A model generated the notes under the pieces. The model did no database searches. It saw nothing but the letters and a program-made list of their open reading frames with translations, and was not told the origin of the DNA. A program made the translations under genes and the position numbers. Shown piece after piece: positions 28,139 through 41,050 of a DNA stretch of 64,000 nucleotides. Numbering within the stretch: the stretch's first letter is position 1; every line of letters begins with the position of its first letter. The DNA is taken from the NCBI RefSeq assembly GCF_001677475.2, contig NZ_CP015229.1; one strand, 5' to 3'. This DNA comes from Escherichia coli. Its GTDB lineage: Bacteria; Pseudomonadota; Gammaproteobacteria; Enterobacterales; Enterobacteriaceae.

Positions 28139-29371
28139 TTAGTACAGCAGACGGGCGCGAATGGTACCCGGAATAGCTTTCATTGCCTGCAGCGCTTTTT
28201 CGGCAACGTCTTCGTCGGCTTCAATATCAATAACTACATAACCCATCTGGGCGGAAGTTTGCAGATATTGCGCGGCGATGTTGACCCCCTGCTCGGCAAA
28301 AATTTTGTTGAGCGCAGTTAGCACGCCCGGACGGTTTTCGTGGATGTGCATCAGACGACGCCCACCGTGCAGTGGCAGCGAGACTTCCGGGAAGTTCACC
28401 GCAGAGAGCGTTGAGCCATTGTCAGAGTACTTGATCAATTTACCCGCAACTTCCAGGCCGATATTCTCCTGCGCTTCCTGAGTCGAACCGCCAATGTGTG
28501 GCGTCAGAAGAACGTTGTCGAATTCACACAGCGGAGAGGTAAATGGATCGCTATTGGTCGCCGGTTCCGTCGGGAATACGTCGATTGCCGCCCCCGCCAG
28601 ATGTTTGCTCGCCAGCGCGTCACACAGCGCTGGAATATCCACCACAGTACCGCGCGAGGCATTAATTAGCAGCGAGCCGGGCTTCATTAGTGAAATTTCT
28701 TTCGCGCCCATCATATTTTTGGTGGACGGATTCTCTGGTACATGCAGACTCACCACATCGCTCATATTCAGCAGGTCAGAAAGATGCTGTATCTGAGTGG
28801 CGTTGCCTAGCGGCAGTTTGTTTTCAATATCATAAAAGTAAACATACATTCCCAGCGATTCAGCCAGAATGCCCAATTGCGTACCAATATGACCGTAGCC
28901 GATGATACCCAGCTTTTTGCCGCGCGCTTCAAAAGAACCCGCCGCCAGTTTGTTCCACACGCCACGGTGCGCTTTAGCATTGGCTTCCGGCACGCCGCGC
29001 AATAGCAGCAGCAGTTCGCCAATCACCAGCTCCGCAACAGAGCGAGTATTTGAGAACGGTGCGTTAAATACCGGGATACCGCGTTTTGCCGCCGCATCCA
29101 GATCAACCTGGTTTGTTCCGATACAGAAACAGCCAATAGCGACCAGTTTTTCTGCGGCGTTGATCACGTCTTCAGTCAGATGGGTACGGGATCGCAGGCC
29201 GATGAAGTGGGCATCGCGGATGGATTCTTTTAATTGTTCATCATCCAGCGCGCCTTTGTGAAATTCGATGTTGGTGTAACCAGCTGCACGAAGGCTTTCC
29301 AGCGCCTTTTGGTGCACGCCTTCTACCAGCAGAAACTTAATCTTGTCTTTCTCCAGCGATACCTTTGCCAT
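28139..29371 (-). CDS. serA: D-3-phosphoglycerate dehydrogenase, 410 aa
   Basis: ORF 28139..29371; 2-hydroxyacid dehydrogenase motifs and C-terminal ACT domain region. Confidence 0.95.
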   Translation of the reverse strand: MAKVSLEKDKIKFLLVEGVHQKALESLRAAGYTNIEFHKGALDDEQLKESIRDAHFIGLRSRTHLTEDVINAAEKLVAIGCFCIGTNQVDLDAAAKRGIPVFNAPFSNTRSVAELVIGELLLLLRGVPEANAKAHRGVWNKLAAGSFEARGKKLGIIGYGHIGTQLGILAESLGMYVYFYDIENKLPLGNATQIQHLSDLLNMSDVVSLHVPENPSTKNMMGAKEISLMKPGSLLINASRGTVVDIPALCDALASKHLAGAAIDVFPTEPATNSDPFTSPLCEFDNVLLTPHIGGSTQEAQENIGLEVAGKLIKYSDNGSTLSAVNFPEVSLPLHGGRRLMHIHENRPGVLTALNKIFAEQGVNIAAQYLQTSAQMGYVVIDIEADEDVAEKALQAMKAIPGTIRARLLY

Positions 29372-29626
29372 TTACCCAATCCTGTCTTTTGAAATGTTGT
29401 GTGCGGATTTGCGTCCGCCTTTCAACATATCAAAAAATAATATTGCGGCAATATGAACGTTTGCGTCGCGATGTTGAGGAAATATCACGCAAAGGTAATT
29501 ATTGGATGAATATGCTGGTTTAGAGGATTTATTTAGAGCAATCGACAATAGCCAGGTAAAAACGTGACACATGTCACCAAATTTAATGAAGAGAATTTTT
29601 TTAACGGGGGAGGTTCCCCCGTCAGA

Positions 29627-30286
29627 TCATTTCACAATGGTTTTGACACCGTCAGGTGTGCCAATCAGCGCAACGTCCGCGCCACGGTTAGCAAACAAGC
29701 CAACAGTCACCACGCCAGGAATCGCATTTATGGCGTTTTCCATCGCTATCGGGTCAAGGATTTCCATGCCGTGGACGTCGAGGATCACGTTGCCGTTATC
29801 GGTCACCACGCCCTGACGGTATTCCGGACGACCGCCCAGTTTCACCAGCTGGCGCGCCACTGCACTACGTGCCATCGGGATAACTTCTACTGGCAGCGGG
29901 AATTTGCCCAGAATATCAACCTGCTTGGAGGCGTCGGCAATACAGATAAATTTTTCCGCAACCGAAGCAATGATTTTTTCACGGGTCAGCGCCGCGCCGC
30001 CGCCTTTGATCATTTGCATGTGGCCGTTGATTTCATCTGCGCCATCAACGTAGATGCCAAGGCTGTCGACTTCGTTGAGATCAAAAACGTGAATGCCGAG
30101 GCTTTTCAGTTTTTCAGTGGAAGCATCTGAACTGGAAACGGCCCCTTCAATCTGGCCTTTCATTGTACCGAGCGCGTCAATAAAGTGTGCGGCGGTGGAA
30201 CCTGTACCTACACCAACAATGGTGCCGGGCTGAACATACTGAAGTGCCGCCCATCCTACTGCTTTTTTCAATTCATCCTGCGTCAT
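29627..30286 (-). CDS. rpiA: ribose-5-phosphate isomerase A, 219 aa
   Basis: ORF 29627..30322; start at [10 protein letters not shown] (ATG 30286..30284) gives the K-12 length. Confidence 0.9.
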
Positions 30287-30322
30287 GATCGTTTCGCCTG
30301 TGGTATGAAATTTCACACGCAT

Positions 30323-30520
30323 TATACTCTAAATAATTCGAGTTGCAGGAAGGCGACAAGAGAGTGACAAATTCGTCAGGAACGAATTTGCCCAGCCGCA
30401 GGCTGGCCTTCGGTGAGAGACATGGATGTCTCTCATTAATCCCCAGGAGCTTACAGAAGTAAGTGACTGGGGTGAGCGAACGCAGACGCAGCACATGCAA
30501 CTTGAAGTATGACGAGTATA
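30323..30520. repeat. ERIC/IRU element, long form with a ~70-bp internal insertion
   Basis: Contains the ERIC core AAGTAAGTGACTGGGGTGAGCG; collinear with the inverted copy at 42381..42507 except for extra DNA at about 30368-30437. Confidence 0.8.
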
Positions 30521-30566
30521 TACAAAAAAAGCGATTCAGACCCCGTTGGCAAGCCGCGTGGTTAAC

Positions 30567-30770
30567 TCATCCATAAAATATCGCGCAATGGCGGGCATCC
30601 CCTTTCGCCCGGCAAATAAAGCATACAACGGTCTGGGTATGCCGCTCCACGGTGCGAACAGAGGCAATAACGCCACGCCATTCAACATAACCAGGGCGCG
30701 AAGTCGCTAAGCGAAATGCAATAGCGCAAATCCCTGATCTTTTAAGCTGCGCGTTTAACCATTGATACAA
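30567..30770 (-). pseudogene. yqfE: short ORF in the rpiA-argP spacer, possibly the yqfE remnant
   Basis: Only the ORF track (67 aa) and its position; no recognisable domain. Confidence 0.2.
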
Positions 30771-30862
30771 ATGTTACCCACCGACGGCTTCGGTATATGC
30801 AACCTGACACAAAATTGTGTCATAGTGCAGGAAAAAGCATTTACCAGGAGCAGACAACAGCA

Positions 30863-31756
30863 ATGAAACGCCCGGACTACAGAACATTACAGGCACTGGA
30901 TGCGGTGATACGTGAACGAGGATTTGAGCGCGCGGCACAAAAGCTGTGCATTACACAATCAGCCGTCTCACAGCGCATTAAGCAACTGGAAAATATGTTC
31001 GGGCAGCCGCTGTTGGTGCGTACCGTACCGCCGCGCCCGACGGAACAAGGGCAAAAACTGCTGGCACTGCTGCGCCAGGTGGAGTTGCTGGAAGAAGAGT
31101 GGCTGGGCGATGAACAAACCGGTTCAACTCCGCTGCTGCTTTCACTGGCGGTCAACGCTGACAGTCTGGCGACGTGGTTGCTTCCGGCGCTGGCTCCTGT
31201 GTTAGCTGATTCGCCTATCCGCCTCAACTTGCAGGTAGAAGATGAAACCCGCACTCAGGAACGTCTGCGCCGTGGCGAAGTGGTCGGCGCGGTGAGTATT
31301 CAACATCAGGCGCTGCCGAGTTGTCTTGTCGATAAGCTCGGTGCGCTTGACTATCTGTTCGTCAGCTCAAAACCGTTTGCCGAAAAATATTTCCCTAACG
31401 GCGTAACGCGTTCGGCATTATTGAAAGCACCTGTGGTCGCCTTTGACCATCTTGACGATATGCACCAGGCCTTTTTGCAGCAAAACTTCGATCTGCCCCC
31501 AGGCAGCGTACCGTGCCATATCGTTAATTCTTCAGAAGCGTTCGTACAACTTGCTCGCCAGGGCACCACCTGCTGTATGATCCCGCACCTGCAAATCGAG
31601 AAAGAACTGGCCAGCGGTGAATTGATTGACTTAACGCCGGGGCTATTTCAACGCCGGATGCTCTACTGGCACCGCTTTGCTCCTGAAAGCCGCATGATGC
31701 GTAAAGTCACTGATGCGTTGCTCGATTATGGTCACAAAGTCCTTCGTCAGGATTAA
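30863..31756 (+). CDS. argP: LysR-type transcriptional regulator ArgP (IciA), 297 aa
   Basis: ORF 30797..31756; start at [10 protein letters not shown] (ATG 30863); N-terminal LysR HTH. Confidence 0.9.
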
Positions 31757-31959
31757 TCCATCAAATAATGCCTGATAGCACATATCAGGCGTTATCCTCA
31801 CTTCTTTTTGTATTCCTTGAAACACATCACAAAATAGACAAATCTCAGGCGGCAAAAAACGACGTCTGAATGCATTTTTTTTGCTGGAGACAAACCCACG
31901 TAAAAAGCTCACCGTAAGCGCAAATACCCTCATTTTGATTGCGTTTTACGGAGCAAATA

Positions 31960-34104
31960 ATGTCTAAGGTGCAGGAGTGGCAACAGCTTGCCAACAAGGA
32001 ATTGAGCCGTCGGGAGAAAACTGTCGACTCGCTGGTTCAGCAAACCGCGGAAGGGATCGCCATCAAGCCGCTGTATACCGAAGCCGATCTCGATAATCTG
32101 GAGGTGACAGGTACCCTTCCTGGTTTGCCCCCCTACGTTCGTGGCCCGCGTGCCACTATGTATACCGCCCAACCGTGGACCATCCGTCAGTATGCTGGTT
32201 TTTCAACAGCAAAAGAGTCCAACGCTTTTTATCGCCGTAACCTGGCCGCCGGGCAAAAAGGTCTTTCCGTTGCGTTTGACCTTGCCACCCACCGAGGCTA
32301 CGACTCCGATAACCCGCGCGTGGCGGGCGACGTCGGCAAAGCGGGCGTTGCTATCGACACCGTGGAAGATATGAAAGTCCTGTTCGACCAGATCCCGCTG
32401 GATAAAATGTCGGTTTCGATGACCATGAATGGCGCAGTACTACCAGTACTGGCGTTTTATATTGTCGCCGCAGAAGAGCAAGGTGTTACACCCGATAAAC
32501 TGACCGGCACCATTCAAAACGATATCCTCAAAGAGTATCTTTGCCGCAACACCTATATTTACCCGCCAAAACCGTCAATGCGTATTATCGCAGACATCAT
32601 CGCCTGGTGTTCCGGCAACATGCCGCGATTTAATACCATCAGTATCAGCGGTTACCATATGGGTGAAGCGGGTGCCAACTGCGTGCAGCAGGTAGCATTT
32701 ACGCTCGCTGATGGGATTGAGTACATCAAAGCAGCAATCTCCGCCGGGCTGAAAATTGATGACTTCGCTCCTCGCCTGTCGTTCTTCTTCGGCATTGGCA
32801 TGGATCTGTTTATGAACGTCGCCATGTTGCGTGCGGCACGTTATTTATGGAGCGAAGCGGTCAGTGGATTTGGCGCACAGGATCCGAAATCACTGGCGCT
32901 GCGTACCCACTGCCAGACCTCAGGCTGGAGCCTGACTGAACAGGATCCGTATAACAACGTTATCCGCACCACCATTGAAGCACTGGCTGCAACGCTGGGC
33001 GGTACTCAGTCACTGCATACCAACGCCTTTGATGAAGCGCTTGGTTTGCCTACCGATTTCTCAGCACGCATTGCCCGCAATACCCAGATCATCATTCAGG
33101 AAGAATCAGAACTCTGCCGCACCGTCGATCCACTGGCCGGATCCTATTACGTTGAGTCGCTGACCGATCAAATCGTCAAACAAGCCAGAGCTATTATCCA
33201 ACAGATCGACGAAGCCGGTGGCATGGCGAAAGCGATCGAAGCAGGTCTGCCAAAACGAATGATCGAAGAGGCCTCAGCGCGCGAACAGTCGCTGATCGAC
33301 CAGGGCAAGCGTGTCATCGTTGGTGTCAACAAGTACAAACTGGATCACGAAGACGAAACCGATGTACTTGAGATCGACAACGTGATGGTGCGTAACGAGC
33401 AAATTGCTTCGCTGGAACGCATTCGCGCCACCCGTGATGATGCCGCCGTAACCGCCGCGTTGAACGCCCTGACTCACGCCGCACAGCATAACGAAAACCT
33501 GCTGGCTGCCGCTGTTAATGCCGCTCGCGTTCGCGCCACCCTGGGTGAAATTTCCGATGCGCTGGAAGCCGCTTTCGACCGTTATCTGGTGCCAAGCCAG
33601 TGTGTTACCGGCGTGATTGCGCAAAGCTATCATCAGTCTGAGAAATCGGCCTCCGAGTTCGATGCCATTGTTGCGCAAACGGAGCTGTTCCTTGCCGACA
33701 ATGGTCGTCGCCCGCGCATTCTGATCGCTAAAATGGGCCAGGATGGGCACGATCGCGGCGCAAAAGTGATCGCCAGCGCCTATTCCGATCTCGGTTTCGA
33801 CGTAGATTTAAGCCCGATGTTCTCTACACCTGAAGAGATCGCCCGCCTGGCAGTAGAAAACGACGTTCACGTAGTGGGCGCATCCTCACTGGCTGCCGGT
33901 CATAAAACGCTGATCCCGGAACTGGTCGAAGCGCTGAAAAAATGGGGACGCGAAGATATCTGCGTAGTCGCCGGTGGCGTCATTCCGCCGCAGGATTACG
34001 CCTTCCTGCAAGAGCGCGGCGTGGCGGCGATTTATGGTCCAGGTACACCTATGCTCGACAGCGTGCGCGACGTACTGAATCTGATAAGCCAGCATCATGA
34101 TTAA
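31960..34104 (+). CDS. scpA: methylmalonyl-CoA mutase (sleeping beauty mutase), 714 aa
   Basis: ORF 31939..34104; start at MSKVQEWQQ (ATG 31960); C-terminal B12-binding DxHxxG motif ([10 protein letters not shown]). Confidence 0.9.
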
Positions 34105-35092
34105 TGAAGCCACGCTGGCAGAAAGTATTCGCCGCTTACGTCAGGGTGAGCGTGCCACGCTCGCCCAGGCCATGACGTTGGTGGAAAGCCGTCACCCGCG
34201 TCATCAGGCGCTAAGTACGCAGCTGCTTGATGCCATTATGCCGTTCTGTGGTAACGCCCTGCGACTGGGCGTTACCGGCACACCCGGCGCGGGGAAAAGT
34301 ACCTTTCTTGAAGCCTTTGGCATGTTGTTGATTCGTGATGGATTAAAGGTTGCGGTTATTGCGGTCGATCCCAGCAGCCCGGTCACTGGCGGTAGCATCC
34401 TCGGGGATAAAACCCGCATGAATGACCTTGCGCGTGCCGAGGCGGCGTTTATTCGCCCGGTACCCTCCTCCGGCCATCTGGGCGGTGCCAGTCAGCGAGC
34501 GCGGGAATTAATGCTGTTATGCGAAGCGGCGGGTTATGACGTAGTGATTGTCGAAACGGTTGGCGTCGGGCAGTCAGAAACGGAAGTCGCCCGCATGGTG
34601 GACTGTTTTATCTCGTTGCAAATTGCCGGTGGCGGCGATGATCTGCAGGGCATTAAAAAGGGGCTGATGGAAGTGGCAGATCTGATCGTTATCAACAAAG
34701 ACGATGGCGATAACCATACCAATGTCGCCATTGCCCGGCATATGTACGAGAGTGCCCTGCATATTCTGCGACGTAAATACGACGAATGGCAGCCACGGGT
34801 TCTGACTTGTAGCGCACTGGAAAAACGTGGAATCGATGAGATCTGGCACGCCATCATCGACTTCAAAACCGCGCTAACTGCCAGTGGTCGATTACAACAA
34901 GTGCGGCAACAACAATCGGTGGAATGGCTGCGTAAGCAGACCGAAGAAGAAGTACTGAATCGCCTGTTCGCGAATGAAGATTTCGATCGCTATTACCGCC
35001 AGACGCTTTTAGCGGTCAAAAACAATACGCTCTCACCGCGCACCGGCCTGCGGCAGCTCAGTGAATTTATCCAGACGCAATATTTTGATTAA
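34097..35092 (+). CDS. argK: G3E-family GTPase ArgK/MeaB-like, 331 aa
   Basis: ORF 34097..35092; P-loop GTPGAGKST; 8-nt overlap with scpA. Confidence 0.9.
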
Positions 35093-35102
35093 AGGAATTT
35101 TT

Positions 35103-35888
35103 ATGTCTTATCAGTATGTGAACGTTGCCACTATCAACAAAGTGGCGGTCATTGAGTTTAACTATGGCCGAAAACTTAATGCCTTAAGTAAAGTCTTTAT
35201 TGATGATCTTATGCAGGCATTAAGCGATCTCAACCGGCCGGAAATTCGCTGTATCATTTTGCGCGCGCCGAGTGGATCCAAAGTCTTCTCCGCAGGTCAC
35301 GATATTCACGAACTGCCGTCTGGCGGTCGCGATCCGCTCTCCTATGATGATCCGTTGCGTCAAATCACCCGCATGATCCAAAAATTCCAGAAACCGATCA
35401 TTTCGATGGTGGAAGGTAGTGTTTGGGGTGGCGCATTTGAAATGATCATGAGTTCCGATCTGATCATCGCCGCCAGTACCTCAACCTTCTCAATGACGCC
35501 TGTAAACCTCGGCGTCCCGTATAACCTGGTCGGCATTCACAACCTGACCCGCGACGCGGGCTTCCACATTGTCAAAGAGCTGATTTTTACCGCTTCGCCA
35601 ATCACCGCCCAGCGCGCGCTGGCTGTCGGCATCCTCAACCATGTTGTGGAAGTGGAAGAACTGGAAGATTTCACCTTACAAATGGCGCACCACATCTCTG
35701 AGAAAGCGCCGTTAGCCATTGCCGTTATCAAAGAAGAGCTGCGTGTACTGGGCGAAGCGCACACCATGAACTCCGATGAATTTGAACGTATTCAGGGGAT
35801 GCGCCGCGCGGTTTATGACAGCGAAGACTACCAGGAAGGGATGAACGCTTTCCTCGAAAAACGTAAACCTAATTTCGTTGGTCATTAA
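35103..35888 (+). CDS. scpB: methylmalonyl-CoA decarboxylase (crotonase fold), 261 aa
   Basis: ORF 35061..35888; start at MSYQYVNVAT (ATG 35103). Confidence 0.85.
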   Translation: MSYQYVNVATINKVAVIEFNYGRKLNALSKVFIDDLMQALSDLNRPEIRCIILRAPSGSKVFSAGHDIHELPSGGRDPLSYDDPLRQITRMIQKFQKPIISMVEGSVWGGAFEMIMSSDLIIAASTSTFSMTPVNLGVPYNLVGIHNLTRDAGFHIVKELIFTASPITAQRALAVGILNHVVEVEELEDFTLQMAHHISEKAPLAIAVIKEELRVLGEAHTMNSDEFERIQGMRRAVYDSEDYQEGMNAFLEKRKPNFVGH

Positions 35889-35911
35889 TCCCTGCGAACG
35901 AAGGAGTTAAA

Positions 35912-37390
35912 ATGGAAACTCAGTGGACAAGGATGACCGCCGATGAAGCGGCAGAAATTATCCAGCATAACGACATGGTGGCATTTAGCGGCTTTACCCC
36001 AGCGGGTTCGCCGAAAGCCTTACCCACCGCGATTGCCCGCAGAGCTAACGAACAGCATGAGGCCAAAAAGCCGTATCAAATTCGCCTGCTGACGGGGGCG
36101 TCAATCAGCGCCGCCGCTGACGATGTACTTTCTGACGCCGATGCTGTTTCCTGGCGTGCGCCATATCAAACATCGTCCGGTTTACGTAAAAAGATCAATC
36201 AGGGCGCGGTGAGTTTCGTTGACCTGCATTTGAGCGAAGTGGCGCAAATGGTCAATTACGGTTTCTTCGGCGACATTGATGTTGCCGTCATTGAAGCATC
36301 GGCACTGGCACCGGATGGTCGAGTCTGGTTAACCAGCGGGATCGGTAATGCGCCTACCTGGCTGCTGCGGGCGAAGAAAGTGATCATTGAACTCAATCAC
36401 TATCACGATCCGCGCGTTGCAGAACTGGCAGATATTGTGATTCCTGGCGCGCCACCGCGGCGCAATAGCGTGTCGATCTTCCATGCAATGGATCGCGTCG
36501 GTACCCGCTATGTGCAAATCGATCCGAAAAAGATTGTCGCCGTCGTGGAAACCAATTTGCCCGACGCCGGTAATATGCTGGATAAGCAAAATCCCATGTG
36601 CCAGCAGATTGCCGATAACGTGGTCACGTTCTTGTTGCAGGAAATGGCGCATGGGCGTATTCCGCCGGAATTTCTGCCGCTGCAAAGTGGCGTGGGCAAT
36701 ATAAATAATGCAGTCATGGCGCGACTAGGGGAAAACCCGGAAATTCCTCCGTTCATGATGTATTCGGAAGTGCTACAGGAATCAGTGGTGCATTTACTGG
36801 AAACGGGCAAAATCAGCGGGGCCAGCGCCTCCAGCCTGACTATCTCGGCCGATTCCCTGCGCAAGATTTACGACAATATGGATTACTTTGCCAGCCGCAT
36901 TGTGTTGCGTCCGCAGGAAATTTCCAATAACCCGGAAATCATCCGTCGTCTGGGCGTCATCGCTCTGAACGTCGGCCTGGAGTTTGATATTTACGGGCAT
37001 GCCAACTCAACACACGTAGCCGGGGTCGATCTGATGAACGGCATCGGCGGCAGCGGTGATTTTGAACGCAACGCGTATCTGTCGATCTTTATGGCCCCGT
37101 CGATTGCTAAAGAAGGCAAGATCTCAACCGTCGTGCCAATGTGCAGCCATGTTGATCACAGCGAACACAGCGTCAAAGTGATCATCACCGAACAAGGGAT
37201 CGCCGATCTGCGCGGTCTTTCCCCGCTTCAACGCGCCCGCACGATCATTGATAATTGTGCACATCCTATGTATCGGGATTATCTGCATCGCTATCTGGAA
37301 AATGCGCCTGGCGGACATATTCACCACGATCTTAGCCACGTCTTCGACTTACACCGTAATTTAATTGCAACCGGCTCGATGCTGGGTTAA
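35912..37390 (+). CDS. scpC: propionyl-CoA:succinate CoA transferase, 492 aa
   Basis: ORF 35912..37390; last gene of the scpA-argK-scpB-scpC operon. Confidence 0.9.
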   Translation: METQWTRMTADEAAEIIQHNDMVAFSGFTPAGSPKALPTAIARRANEQHEAKKPYQIRLLTGASISAAADDVLSDADAVSWRAPYQTSSGLRKKINQGAVSFVDLHLSEVAQMVNYGFFGDIDVAVIEASALAPDGRVWLTSGIGNAPTWLLRAKKVIIELNHYHDPRVAELADIVIPGAPPRRNSVSIFHAMDRVGTRYVQIDPKKIVAVVETNLPDAGNMLDKQNPMCQQIADNVVTFLLQEMAHGRIPPEFLPLQSGVGNINNAVMARLGENPEIPPFMMYSEVLQESVVHLLETGKISGASASSLTISADSLRKIYDNMDYFASRIVLRPQEISNNPEIIRRLGVIALNVGLEFDIYGHANSTHVAGVDLMNGIGGSGDFERNAYLSIFMAPSIAKEGKISTVVPMCSHVDHSEHSVKVIITEQGIADLRGLSPLQRARTIIDNCAHPMYRDYLHRYLENAPGGHIHHDLSHVFDLHRNLIATGSMLG

Positions 37391-38283
37391 TGACTCGTCC
37401 CGTCACGATCTTCAGCAATATGCTGAAGCATCGTGGCGGTATAACGATGATTTCTGATTGAATAAAGATATTCCTGCATATACATCGGCCTGTGCGGTGC
37501 ATCAAAATATTTCAGCGTTGCCGGATTCACCAGTCGCCAGGCAAAATGCGGGATCACCGTCAGAAAATGTCCGCGCTCCACGGCGCTGATTTTGGCCATA
37601 AAACTGTAGGGACGATAAATAATGGTTGGATTGATCCCACAAGGTCGCATATTCGCATCAATCATTGCTTCGAAGTTGGCCCGGTTCTGAAAGCGCATTT
37701 GCAGCCAGGGCAGCTCCTGAAGCAGCTCTTGCTCTTGACGCTCTTCATAACGGCGAGAAACGAGAAAGCCCAATCGCAGCGGCGGTAGTTCACTGATAGT
37801 CAGGTTTTCCAGTTCCTGAACTCGTGAAGATACATGCTGTGGGGAGATAATAAAATCTAACTGACGGTCAAAAAGATTATCGATAACGCCGTTTTCGCTG
37901 AACTCAACTGGCTGGGCGGTCACGCCTTCATACTTATCTCCGAGACTAATCAACTGATCGAAAATAATTGTCGGATAAGTATTATCTATGCCAATCACAA
38001 TTTCTCGTGAACGACGCCCTGAGTTATGGATTTCATTATCAATCGCAGAAAGTCGTTGATAAACCGGGAACAGTTTTTGATACAGTTCCTGTCCGGCTTT
38101 ATTGAGGCTGATATTATTATCTTTGCGGGTAAATAGCGTATAGCCAATTTGTTCTTCCAGCGCGGCAATGCTTTTACCAAATGGCGAAGCCGTCATATGG
38201 ATTTTTTCTGCCGCCCGGGCAATATTATTGGTTTGCGCTAATAAAATGAAATTGCGCATCTTTTTCGAAATAAAAATGTCCAT
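37387..38283 (-). CDS. ygfI: LysR-family transcriptional regulator, 298 aa
   Basis: ORF 37387..38283; N-terminal HTH; 3' end overlaps the scpC stop by 4 nt (convergent). Confidence 0.85.
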   Translation of the reverse strand: MDIFISKKMRNFILLAQTNNIARAAEKIHMTASPFGKSIAALEEQIGYTLFTRKDNNISLNKAGQELYQKLFPVYQRLSAIDNEIHNSGRRSREIVIGIDNTYPTIIFDQLISLGDKYEGVTAQPVEFSENGVIDNLFDRQLDFIISPQHVSSRVQELENLTISELPPLRLGFLVSRRYEERQEQELLQELPWLQMRFQNRANFEAMIDANMRPCGINPTIIYRPYSFMAKISAVERGHFLTVIPHFAWRLVNPATLKYFDAPHRPMYMQEYLYSIRNHRYTATMLQHIAEDRDGTSH

Positions 38284-38421
38284 ACCCCCTCCCCCGCATC
38301 CTTGTCCGCTTAACCGTTTCAGTCAGCCTATCCTTGATGAAACCGCGAGCAAAGATAGGTGATTACGTCATGGTTTTACAGAAAATTACAGAAAAAGGAG
38401 GCAATATCGGGTAAAGGCATT

Positions 38422-38443
38422 AGCCCGACGAATACGTCGGGCT
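38422..38443 (-). other. 9-bp-stem hairpin just downstream of yggE (possible terminator or 3' stabiliser)
   Basis: AGCCCGACG-AATA-CGTCGGGCT; no clean T-run follows on the minus strand. Confidence 0.35.
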
Positions 38444-38450
38444 ACAAATA

Positions 38451-39191
38451 TTATTGTGCTGCAGGTGTTTTAGCGGGTTGTTGATCCACAGGTTCTAACT
38501 GGAAGACCACATCGACCTGATCATCAAACTGAATAGCGGCCTGCTCGTAAGTTTCCTGGGCGGACACCGGCGCGGCATCGGCTTTCATCATCCGCACCAT
38601 TGGGCTGGGCTGATAGTTGGAAACATGGTAGCGCACGCTATATACCGGCCCCAGTTTACGATGAAAGCCGTTCGCCAGTTCCTGCGCCTGATGAATCGCG
38701 TTATCAATCGCTGCCTTACGCGCTTTGTCTTTATAGGCATCCGGCTGCGCCACGCCCAGCGACACAGAACGAATTTCGTTAAGACCCGCCTTCAGCGCGC
38801 CATCCAGCAAGGAATTCAGTTTGTCTAACTGACGGAGCGTGACTTCCACCGTTCTCACAGCACGGTAGCCTTTCAGGATACTTTTACCATCCTGATAATC
38901 ATAATCTGGCTGGGTGCGTAAGTTCGCTGAGCTGATATCTTTTTTCGCGATCTGATTGAGTTCAAGGAAGGAAATGTATTGTGCGACGCGCTCATCCGCC
39001 TGTTTCTTGGCAGTAGCGGCATCCTTCGCGGCCACGTTGACTTCAATCGCAAGAGTGGCAATGTCTGGCACCGCATCCACGCTTGCCGTACCGGAGGTGA
39101 CAATATGCGGTCCATCCGGCAATTCGTTAGCCTGCGCTGCCATCCCGCTAATACCCATTAATGCCGCCAGGGCGATAACTTTGAACTTCAC
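38451..39191 (-). CDS. yggE: periplasmic DUF541/SIMPL-like protein YggE, 246 aa
   Basis: ORF 38451..39191; N-terminal signal peptide. Confidence 0.85.
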   Translation of the reverse strand: MKFKVIALAALMGISGMAAQANELPDGPHIVTSGTASVDAVPDIATLAIEVNVAAKDAATAKKQADERVAQYISFLELNQIAKKDISSANLRTQPDYDYQDGKSILKGYRAVRTVEVTLRQLDKLNSLLDGALKAGLNEIRSVSLGVAQPDAYKDKARKAAIDNAIHQAQELANGFHRKLGPVYSVRYHVSNYQPSPMVRMMKADAAPVSAQETYEQAAIQFDDQVDVVFQLEPVDQQPAKTPAAQ

Positions 39192-39283
39192 GTTAGTCTC
39201 TCCGTGTTAATTGACTTGCCTAAAATTCAGGACCTCTGGAGGCAAGCTTAGCGCCTCTGTTTTATTTTTCCATCAGATAGCGC

Positions 39284-39919
39284 CTAACTGAACAAGGCTT
39301 GTGCATGAGCAATACCGTCTCTCGCCAGCTGCAAAGCAATAAACCACATAACACATCCCACTACCAGATTGATAATGCGCTGTGATTTTGCCGTGCGCAG
39401 GCGCGGTGCCAGCCAGGCTGCGAGAATAGCCAGACCAAAGAACCACAGGAAAGAGGCGCTAATTGTCCCGAGCGCAAACCAACGTTTTGGTTCCACATCA
39501 AGTTGCCCGCCAAGGCTGCCCAGCACAACAAAAGTATCCAGGTAAACATGCGGGTTCAGCCAGGTCACTGCCAACATGGTGGCGATAATTTTCCATCTGC
39601 CTTGCTTCAGGACTTCGGCACTGGCTAACTCAATGTTACTGCTCATTGCTGTTTTAAAAGCGCCAAAACCATACCACAGCAAGAAGGCTACGCCGCCCCA
39701 GGTGACCAGCGCCAGCAACCACGGCGACTGCATCAATAACGCGCTGCCACCAAAAATCCCCGCGCAAATCAGGACCAAATCGCTGATAGCACAAAGTAAG
39801 GCAATCATAATGTGGTACTGACGACGAATGCCCTGATTCATCACAAAAGCATTTTGTGGACCGAGCGGTAGGATCATAGCTGCGCCAAGCACAAGACCTT
39901 GAAAGTAATAAGAAAACAC
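39284..39919 (-). CDS. argO: arginine exporter ArgO (LysE family), 211 aa
   Basis: ORF 39284..39919; multi-TM LysE-type sequence. Confidence 0.9.
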
Positions 39920-40004
39920 GTTGTATATTCCGAATTAAGTATCTGATGCAGAGACTATATCGCGGGATTGTTATTAGCGGAAATTGATAATATTAATTGG
40001 CAAT

Positions 40005-40048
40005 CAGAAAAACTAATAAGAGAGAGGCCAGAGAGTATTATCTGGCCT
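40005..40048 (-). terminator. hairpin downstream of mscS
   Basis: Perfect 8-bp stem AGGCCAGA/TCTGGCCT; T-rich tract on the minus strand about 10 nt after the stem. Confidence 0.45.
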
Positions 40049-40057
40049 CAGCGTTGA

Positions 40058-40918
<861 letters not shown>

Positions 40919-41050
40919 TCAATATTCCTTTTCAACTGACTCAAAATGGAGAAATACACTCCGCCGCCTTATGACGGGCAGTCTGACAAGGGTAAACAAT
41001 AAAGCATAATTTTGCCAAATAGATCACAGATTTCTCATCTGTATCACCTT

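Follow-up and report, generated by a model that had tools for sequence, protein, structure and literature searches.

A LysR-type gene inherited with the sleeping-beauty mutase operon of Escherichia coli as a candidate regulator of that operon

Introduction

The sbm (scp) operon of Escherichia coli has been a minor puzzle since about 2000, because its four genes, all intact, encode a B12-dependent pathway to propionate that is hardly ever expressed. In this route succinyl-CoA is converted to methylmalonyl-CoA by the B12-dependent reaction and then to propionyl-CoA, whose CoA is returned to succinate as propionate is released; E. coli itself does not make B12. Engineers swap the sbm promoter when they wish to make propionate, propanol, or odd-chain polymers. 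Here we describe the operon, scpA (sbm)-argK-scpB-scpC, and the gene convergent to it, srsR (ygfI), which encodes a LysR-type transcriptional regulator (LTTR), in a 64,000-nucleotide stretch of the E. coli contig NZ_CP015229.1 (hereafter the window, in whose numbering all coordinates are given). A preliminary description made from this sequence alone had named ygfI as the natural candidate for the operon's regulator, and it is this proposal that we have followed up by comparison of genomes.

Among the closest known counterparts of such an arrangement are the classical LysR activators of catabolic operons, for example CatR/BenM, CbbR, and IlvY; LysR regulators are typically encoded divergently from their targets. 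The scp locus resembles these systems in that a LysR gene stands beside a pathway operon, a T-N11-A dyad (here a candidate operator) may lie over the -35 region, and the basal promoter appears weak. It differs from them in that srsR is convergent to the operon, overlaps its last gene, and lies about 5.5 kb from the presumed operator, with no shared divergent control region.

The locus itself has been described in K-12 MG1655 (b2917-b2920, with srsR/ygfI as b2921), and we regard it as already known because gene order and gene lengths match; orientation, overlaps, and flanking genes are likewise the same, and nucleotide identity over the coding sequences is 97.7-99.1%. The window comes from a different strain, with 14 amino acid differences over the five proteins, including a private P96Q substitution in ScpB, and with one changed base in a conserved upstream core, where the window has GAGACA instead of GCGACA. 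Given a supply of B12, the K-12 enzymes are known to convert succinate to propionate (PMC3850637, PMC5512728), by way of methylmalonyl-CoA and propionyl-CoA (PMC3850637). The operon is silent or barely expressed, possibly through a weak promoter, and added cobalamin is required (PMC3850637); the native pathway has also been argued to miss an epimerase step (PMC5512728). The preliminary description's account of a normally silent succinate-to-propionate route agrees with both of these papers.

The YgfI protein has been given two other functions. A study by genomic systematic evolution of ligands by exponential enrichment (gSELEX) renamed it SrsR and reported 10 target loci and an 11-bp box, TCAGATTTTGC; the targets were backed by gel shifts and a footprint, reverse transcription quantitative PCR (RT-qPCR) gave srsR-dependent changes, the strongest site lay within the K-12 prophage CPS-53, and srsR mRNA rose approximately 25-fold in stationary phase (Kobayashi et al. 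2022; PMC9181523). A second study, which combined chromatin immunoprecipitation with exonuclease digestion (ChIP-exo) and RNA-seq, renamed it DhfA, an activator of dhaKLM, and described a glycerol growth phenotype of the ygfI mutant (Rodionova et al. 2022; PMC9068703). The underlying ChIP-exo run, in glucose minimal medium, yielded two sites only, at dhaK and mdtL (PMC8464067, supplement). The gSELEX and ChIP-exo target lists have no gene in common, and an effect of SrsR on fucAO, one of the gSELEX targets, was undetectable for an independent group (PMC11011485). We consider these competing functional assignments weak. Our searches of the literature for a link of ygfI to the mutase or to the older gene names returned nothing relevant.

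Results

Inheritance of srsR with the operon

A scan for the SrsR protein with one genome per bacterial species returned 42 loci, which belong to Escherichia, Citrobacter, Salmonella enterica subsp. arizonae and diarizonae, the Klebsiella oxytoca group, Kosakonia, the Yersinia frederiksenii group, Superficieibacter, Yokenella, Pluralibacter, and a few oddly labelled records. At every one of them (42 of 42) srsR is directly convergent to scpC, and the scp genes upstream contain no internal stops. The set scpA-argK-scpB-scpC is complete in 41; at the remaining locus, L019, scpA falls beyond the end of a short contig. The genes that flank the five are of at least six types: yggE/argP, FlgT/Kup, AcpH/alpha-amylase, unknown/autotransporter, YniB/fructosamine kinase, and RHS/flavin reductase. 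The yggE/argP flanks of the window are the Escherichia-Citrobacter-Klebsiella type only. Since the flanks vary in at least six ways, the five genes travel as one cassette, and an adjacency kept in 42 of 42 loci over at least six contexts suggests that the association of srsR with scp goes beyond what hitchhiking explains.

More distant versions of the operon, found through relatives of ScpB and their gene contexts, bear on the same question. A Sodalis cassette whose ScpB is 78% identical still has a convergent LysR gene. In the Yersinia enterocolitica-type operon (L050/L051) the enzyme genes and their direction are the same, but there is no srsR; an IclR-family gene stands divergently upstream of scpA, and genes for ThrE-family membrane proteins lie downstream. 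A metagenomic operon (L054), which has no meaB, carries a sigma-54 activator gene right after scpC, and this gene, like srsR, is convergent. Different regulator genes beside these two distant versions are what would be expected if such a neighbour regulates the operon. Two further distant versions have no obvious regulator adjacent to them.

Two of the cassettes of the enterobacterial type come from records labelled "Aeromonas sp. RU39B" (L026) and "Martelella alba" (L042), with SrsR proteins 89% and 64% identical, respectively. The flanks of the latter resemble those of a Sodalis locus (L056). Mislabelling of the organisms, or transfer of the cassettes, could account for these records.

Conserved sequence upstream of scpA

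When approximately 220 nt upstream of scpA were aligned across genomic contexts, conserved blocks were seen to stand in otherwise diverged sequence (Table 1). No other non-coding block is as conserved as the right arm with its T-N11-A box; TTG-N7-CAA belongs to the T-N11-A dyads, a class of site that LysR proteins bind. The elements GCAAAAAA and TTTTTTGC form an inverted pair, and TTTTGC, the most strongly conserved stretch of the published SrsR box, is found within the arms. Read as its reverse complement, TCGTTTTTTGC, the left arm matches that box at 8 of 11 positions, which is equal to or better than half of the published sites, though short of a two-mismatch threshold, and scp is not among the targets reported for SrsR or DhfA.

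The motif is almost invariant in the cassettes that have srsR. In 39 of the 42 species loci, as in all E. coli loci that we examined, a 16-nt core, TTTTTTGCYNGMGACA, is found exactly once, and its place is invariably upstream of scpA. In two cassettes, L042 and L056, where the LysR protein shares only about 64% identity, it is degenerate. From the scp operons that have no srsR (L050-L055, L057, L058), the Yersinia enterocolitica-type and metagenomic operons with their other regulator families among them, both the core and the TTTTTTGC/GCGACA motif are absent. Within the core, position 31888 of the window is A where nearly all cassettes have C. The same base is found in L003 and L061, two further E. 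coli loci, and the putative operator or the -35 region could be weaker for it.

Signals at the RNA level were sought as well. RNAalifold predicted zero pairs for the conserved block, and a scan of 29000-41000 against Rfam at E≤0.1 gave no match, neither a B12 riboswitch nor any other known RNA. As the block has no conserved RNA fold, it is likely to be a DNA-level signal. A leader hairpin or attenuator upstream of scpA was considered and dropped on the RNAalifold result; the terminator-like stem that surrounds the left arm in Kosakonia is attributed to chance.

Matches to the CRP consensus and to the SrsR box are not significant alone: at up to two mismatches the window holds 30 CRP-like sequences, where 26 are expected, and 28 SrsR boxes, where 24 are expected. 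The CRP-like site upstream of scpA is singled out by its conserved position, and it reads TTTGA-N6-TCACA in most other genera. A promoter scan found no sigma-70 promoter scoring at least 9/12 anywhere in the argP-scpA spacer, as would be expected of a promoter that depends on an activator more than of one that is self-sufficient. If transcription starts approximately 40-45 nt before the ATG, a position that we have guessed, the left arm would fall near -60, the T-N11-A box near -30, and the CRP-like site near -92, all of them typical positions. Upstream of srsR itself we see only a vague resemblance to the motif and make no claim of autoregulation.

It might be proposed that the operon is controlled by ArgP, by global factors alone (CRP, sigma-S), or by both, and that the conserved block is a mere promoter core. 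The argP gene lies 203 bp upstream on the same strand, and the CRP-like site is conserved. On the other hand, argP does not lie beside the cassette in Yersinia, Kosakonia, Superficieibacter, and other loci; it forms no part of the mobile cassette and is not adjacent in five of the six contexts, and the motif is unchanged there. We have rejected ArgP as the regulator of the operon because cassette and motif occur without it. The absence of a good sigma-70 promoter also fits dependence on an activator better than it fits this proposal, which as a whole we judge very improbable.

Constraint on srsR after loss of the operon

Among 5426 complete E. coli genomes, 4272 have the full region and 4309 have scpB. 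About 21% of the complete genomes share a single 4.26-kb deletion (window about 32979-37236) that joins the 5′ end of scpA, left as a stub, to the final 153 nt of scpC, so that most of scpA and scpC and all of argK and scpB are lost. These genomes allow us to ask what becomes of srsR without its neighbours. We sampled the deletion class at even steps down the ranking (n = 8) and counted variants in operon-bearing genomes for comparison (n = 10). In the deletion sample, srsR carries a nonsense codon in four of eight genomes (S92*, accompanied in three of them by W193*); in the other four it is open, and numerous private substitutions are seen, among them P34R in the DNA-binding domain, along with a 6-nt in-frame deletion. 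In some genomes with the 4.26-kb deletion (among L045-L049 and L059-L061) the scpA stub has undergone a further small deletion.

Our measure of co-decay was at first the frequency of pseudogenes, which we replaced with a comparison of nonsynonymous and synonymous changes. Segregating codon variants of srsR are 17 nonsynonymous to 16 synonymous in the deletion class; where the operon is present they are 5 to 48 (odds ratio 10.2, p = 2.4e-5). In the same genomes the ratio is not shifted for the neighbouring genes yggE, argO, and argP, which served as controls (5:39 versus 15:173, p = 0.55), and srsR is distinct from them within the deletion class (p = 2e-4). The comparison suggests that much of the selective value of srsR derives from the operon.

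Nonsense alleles of srsR are not rare. W193* (TGG to TAG) is present in 845 of the 5426 genomes, including O157:H7 and part of the scp-deletion clade, and also in the type strain of E. albertii; S92* is present in 552 E. coli genomes. Codon 193 (37705-37707, middle base 37706, minus strand) lies inside a Dcm site, CCTGG, and W193* looks like a recurrent hotspot of 5-methylcytosine deamination.

These observations bear on the proposal that SrsR has nothing to do with scp and acts elsewhere, in stationary-phase stress or on the prophage, or in dhaKLM and formate metabolism, and that the two are adjacent through joint acquisition and inheritance only. In favour of this proposal are the gSELEX, gel-shift, footprint, and RT-qPCR results at 10 loci (PMC9181523), the ChIP-exo site at dhaK and the growth phenotype of the mutant on glycerol, the failure of any of these studies to report scp, and the open srsR frame in about half of the sampled genomes that have lost the operon. 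The two published regulons do not overlap, however, the fucAO target was not reproduced (PMC11011485), and a site in CPS-53 cannot account for the conservation of srsR in Yersinia, Kosakonia, and Klebsiella. A nonsense allele in at least 845 of 5426 E. coli genomes would be odd for a general stress regulator, and joint inheritance alone leaves unexplained both the invariant adjacency over at least six contexts and the relaxation of selection that is specific to srsR after operon loss. We regard action elsewhere as the main rival reading, though the less likely one.

The scpC-srsR junction

The stop codons of scpC (TAA, 37388-37390) and srsR (the reverse complement of 37387-37389) share a TTAA palindrome, which gives a 4-nt overlap of the two coding sequences. 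This overlap is kept exactly in 35 of 43 loci and is 15-40 nt long in 5 more, so that stops overlap by at least 4 nt in 40 of 43 loci from Escherichia to Yersinia. No terminator-like hairpin is found at the junction; the first on the plus strand is at 37573-37586, approximately 180 nt inside srsR. One could therefore imagine that the two units are coupled at the level of RNA, antisense readthrough making srsR and scp expression mutually exclusive by interference or antisense RNA, whatever SrsR binds. The rise of srsR mRNA in stationary phase could be cited for such coupling as well. But the overlap may be no more than a sign that a mobile cassette has been compacted, spacers of 128-186 nt occur in other cassettes (L042, L056), and coupling of this sort leaves unexplained the motif upstream of scpA and the conservation of a DNA-binding protein. 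As the explanation of the association we find it improbable, although it is compatible with regulation by SrsR and could coexist with it.

Features of the locus

Genes were called from a six-frame list of open reading frames (ORFs), searches of NCBIfam families, and base-by-base comparison with K-12 MG1655. On the plus strand, mutase, MeaB-type GTPase, crotonase-type decarboxylase, and CoA transferase genes follow one another in the same direction, and all five proteins score above the curated cut-off of their own NCBIfam equivalog (Table 1). That the region is the scpA (sbm)-argK-scpB-scpC operon with a convergent LysR gene, all five genes being full length, is essentially certain.

Table 1. 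Features of the scp-srsR locus, with window coordinates
Feature	Coordinates	Strand	Basis
argP, LysR-family regulator	30863-31756	+	NCBIfam ArgP/LysG, 418 bits; protein identical to K-12
Inverted repeat GCCTGATAGCACATATCAGGC just after argP, terminator-like	31770-31790	+	terminator scan, sequence; not conserved outside Escherichia
CRP-like site CTTGA-N6-TCACA, -144 to -129 from scpA ATG (putative)	31816-31831	+	position conserved across genera
Left arm GCAAAAAACGA of conserved inverted repeat	31852-31862	+	alignment
Right arm TTTTTTTTGC into T-N11-A box TTGCTGGAGACAA (TTG-N7-CAA); candidate LTTR operator and -35 region	31875-31893	+	alignment
Block AAAAAGCTCACCGTA, probably weak -10 region	31902-31916	+	alignment
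scpA (sbm), B12-dependent methylmalonyl-CoA mutase, 714 aa	31960-34104	+	NF006944, 1250.8 bits (cut-off 876)
argK (ygfD/meaB), mutase-associated GTPase, 331 aa	34097-35092	+	NF006958 (MeaB), 494.1 bits (cut-off 329)
scpB (ygfG), methylmalonyl-CoA decarboxylase, 261 aa	35103-35888	+	NF008506, 485.1 bits (cut-off 257)
scpC (ygfH), propionyl-CoA:succinate CoA transferase, 492 aa	35912-37390	+	TIGR03458, YgfH-type, 754.5 bits (cut-off 658.7)
TTAA, shared stop codons of convergent scpC and srsR	37387-37390	.	sequence
srsR (ygfI, dhfA), LysR-type transcriptional regulator, 298 aa, intact	37387-38283	-	NF047842, 635 bits (cut-off 425), residues 2-295
srsR-yggE spacer, presumed srsR promoter; contains CTGTAAAA and a hairpin after yggE	38284-38450	-	sequence, cross-species comparison

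The preliminary description had called the four scp genes intact and tightly packed, with scpA and argK overlapping by 8 nt and ygfI ending 4 nt inside the scpC stop on the other strand. Each of these points is borne out. The five ORFs have their K-12 lengths, no internal stops, and one to five amino acid differences each: five in scpA (98.4% nucleotide identity), two in scpC, and one in srsR. No frameshift was found, and the expected motifs are in place, namely the B12-binding motif DGHDRG at residue 595 of ScpA, the P-loop GTPGAGKS of ArgK, and His66/Tyr140 of ScpB. The scpA/argK overlap, ATGATTAA, is read directly from the sequence; the gaps that follow are 10 nt (argK-scpB) and 23 nt (scpB-scpC).

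One qualification attaches to scpB. Codon 96 (35388-35390) encodes Gln, whereas Pro is invariant in 43 of 43 loci from other species and is also present in K-12 and in the nearest relative of the window. A 55-mer centred on the variant base finds the Gln allele in 0 of the 5426 complete E. coli genomes and the Pro allele in 4309. The change is either a private, possibly damaging substitution or an error of base calling.

Over 8 kb the best match among complete genomes is 99.2% identical, and most genomes are 95-99% identical. As in K-12, serA, rpiA, and argP lie upstream of the operon, and yggE, argO, and mscS lie downstream of srsR. The nearest relative, L001 (NZ_AP041814.1), has genes for an azoreductase, a YdgH/BhsA-family protein, and a ferredoxin reductase upstream of argP and a gene for a TRAP-transporter binding protein between argO and mscS, none of which are present in the window. 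The spacer between rpiA and argP (window about 30330-30660) corresponds in K-12 to the pseudogene yqfE; in other strains a 76-aa fragment of a LysR substrate-binding domain is annotated there. The CTGTAAAA element of the srsR-yggE spacer is kept across Enterobacteriaceae loci.

Discussion

Three independent kinds of comparative evidence, the inheritance of srsR with the operon, the motif upstream of scpA, and the relaxed selection on srsR after operon loss, support a link between SrsR and scp. We estimate at roughly 55% the probability that SrsR is the cassette's own regulator, most likely an effector-dependent activator that acts at the conserved block upstream of scpA. The five genes and approximately 150 bp upstream of scpA would be one inherited cassette, with SrsR as its transcription factor. 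SrsR would bind the inverted TTTTTTGC arms and the T-N11-A box, between -108 and -67 from the scpA start codon, in a block that would overlap a weak -35 region. Together with a small-molecule effector, and probably helped by cyclic AMP-CRP at the upstream site, it would activate an otherwise near-inactive promoter, and the operon would "sleep" for want of that effector in laboratory conditions. Transcripts of scp would, by virtue of the stop-to-stop overlap, run antisense into srsR; any feedback through such transcripts is speculation. On the fuller statement, that YgfI/SrsR is a dedicated, effector-dependent sbm activator within a five-gene mobile cassette, that it is not primarily a regulator of stress or of dihydroxyacetone metabolism, and that laboratory silence reflects the absence of its effector, we would place an even bet.

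Several observations weigh against SrsR as the regulator of scp. The srsR gene is convergent to scp and not divergent from a target promoter. At its stated cut-offs the gSELEX-chip list has no scpA peak (PMC9181523, Table 1), neither ChIP-exo site is at scp (PMC8464067, supplement), and the paper that reports ΔygfI RNA-seq makes no mention of scp (PMC9068703). No SrsR box with two or fewer mismatches is present in the scpA spacer (31757-31959), and a match as good as the best one there, at 8 of 11 positions, would by our estimate, which was not computed, often be expected by chance alone. The positions assigned relative to the promoter are guesses. The presence of the motif and the presence of srsR are confounded with cassette lineage. 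The deletion was a single ancestral event, and the test of selection therefore rests on one clade and a small sample; half of the sampled deletion genomes keep an open srsR frame, and the frequency of srsR pseudogenes does not differ significantly between the sampled classes (4 of 8 versus 2 of 7, p = 0.61). Finally, srsR is a pseudogene in some genomes in which the scp operon is intact, through W193* in O157:H7 and in the E. albertii type strain and through a frameshift in L001.

The experimental literature leaves the link between SrsR and scp neither established nor excluded. As to the earlier suggestion that ygfI regulates the operon, comparative evidence now speaks for it and published data lend it no support; the suggestion is reasonable, and it is better supported than the window alone could show, yet it is still something that we infer.

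The locus and its arrangement are already known and, in themselves, ordinary. What is new relative to the literature that we searched is the recognition, from comparative sequence analysis, of ygfI and the sbm operon as what appears to be one conserved cassette with an upstream motif, and of the apparent decay of srsR once the operon is lost. A role for SrsR will not surprise specialists, but the cassette evidence makes an old and modest puzzle directly testable. Should SrsR prove to be the natural switch of the operon, the functional names now attached to YgfI, which are based on data sets that disagree with each other, would be corrected, and there would be a native means of inducing the sbm operon. 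Identification of the effector would, in addition, show when E. coli makes use of this pathway in the gut.

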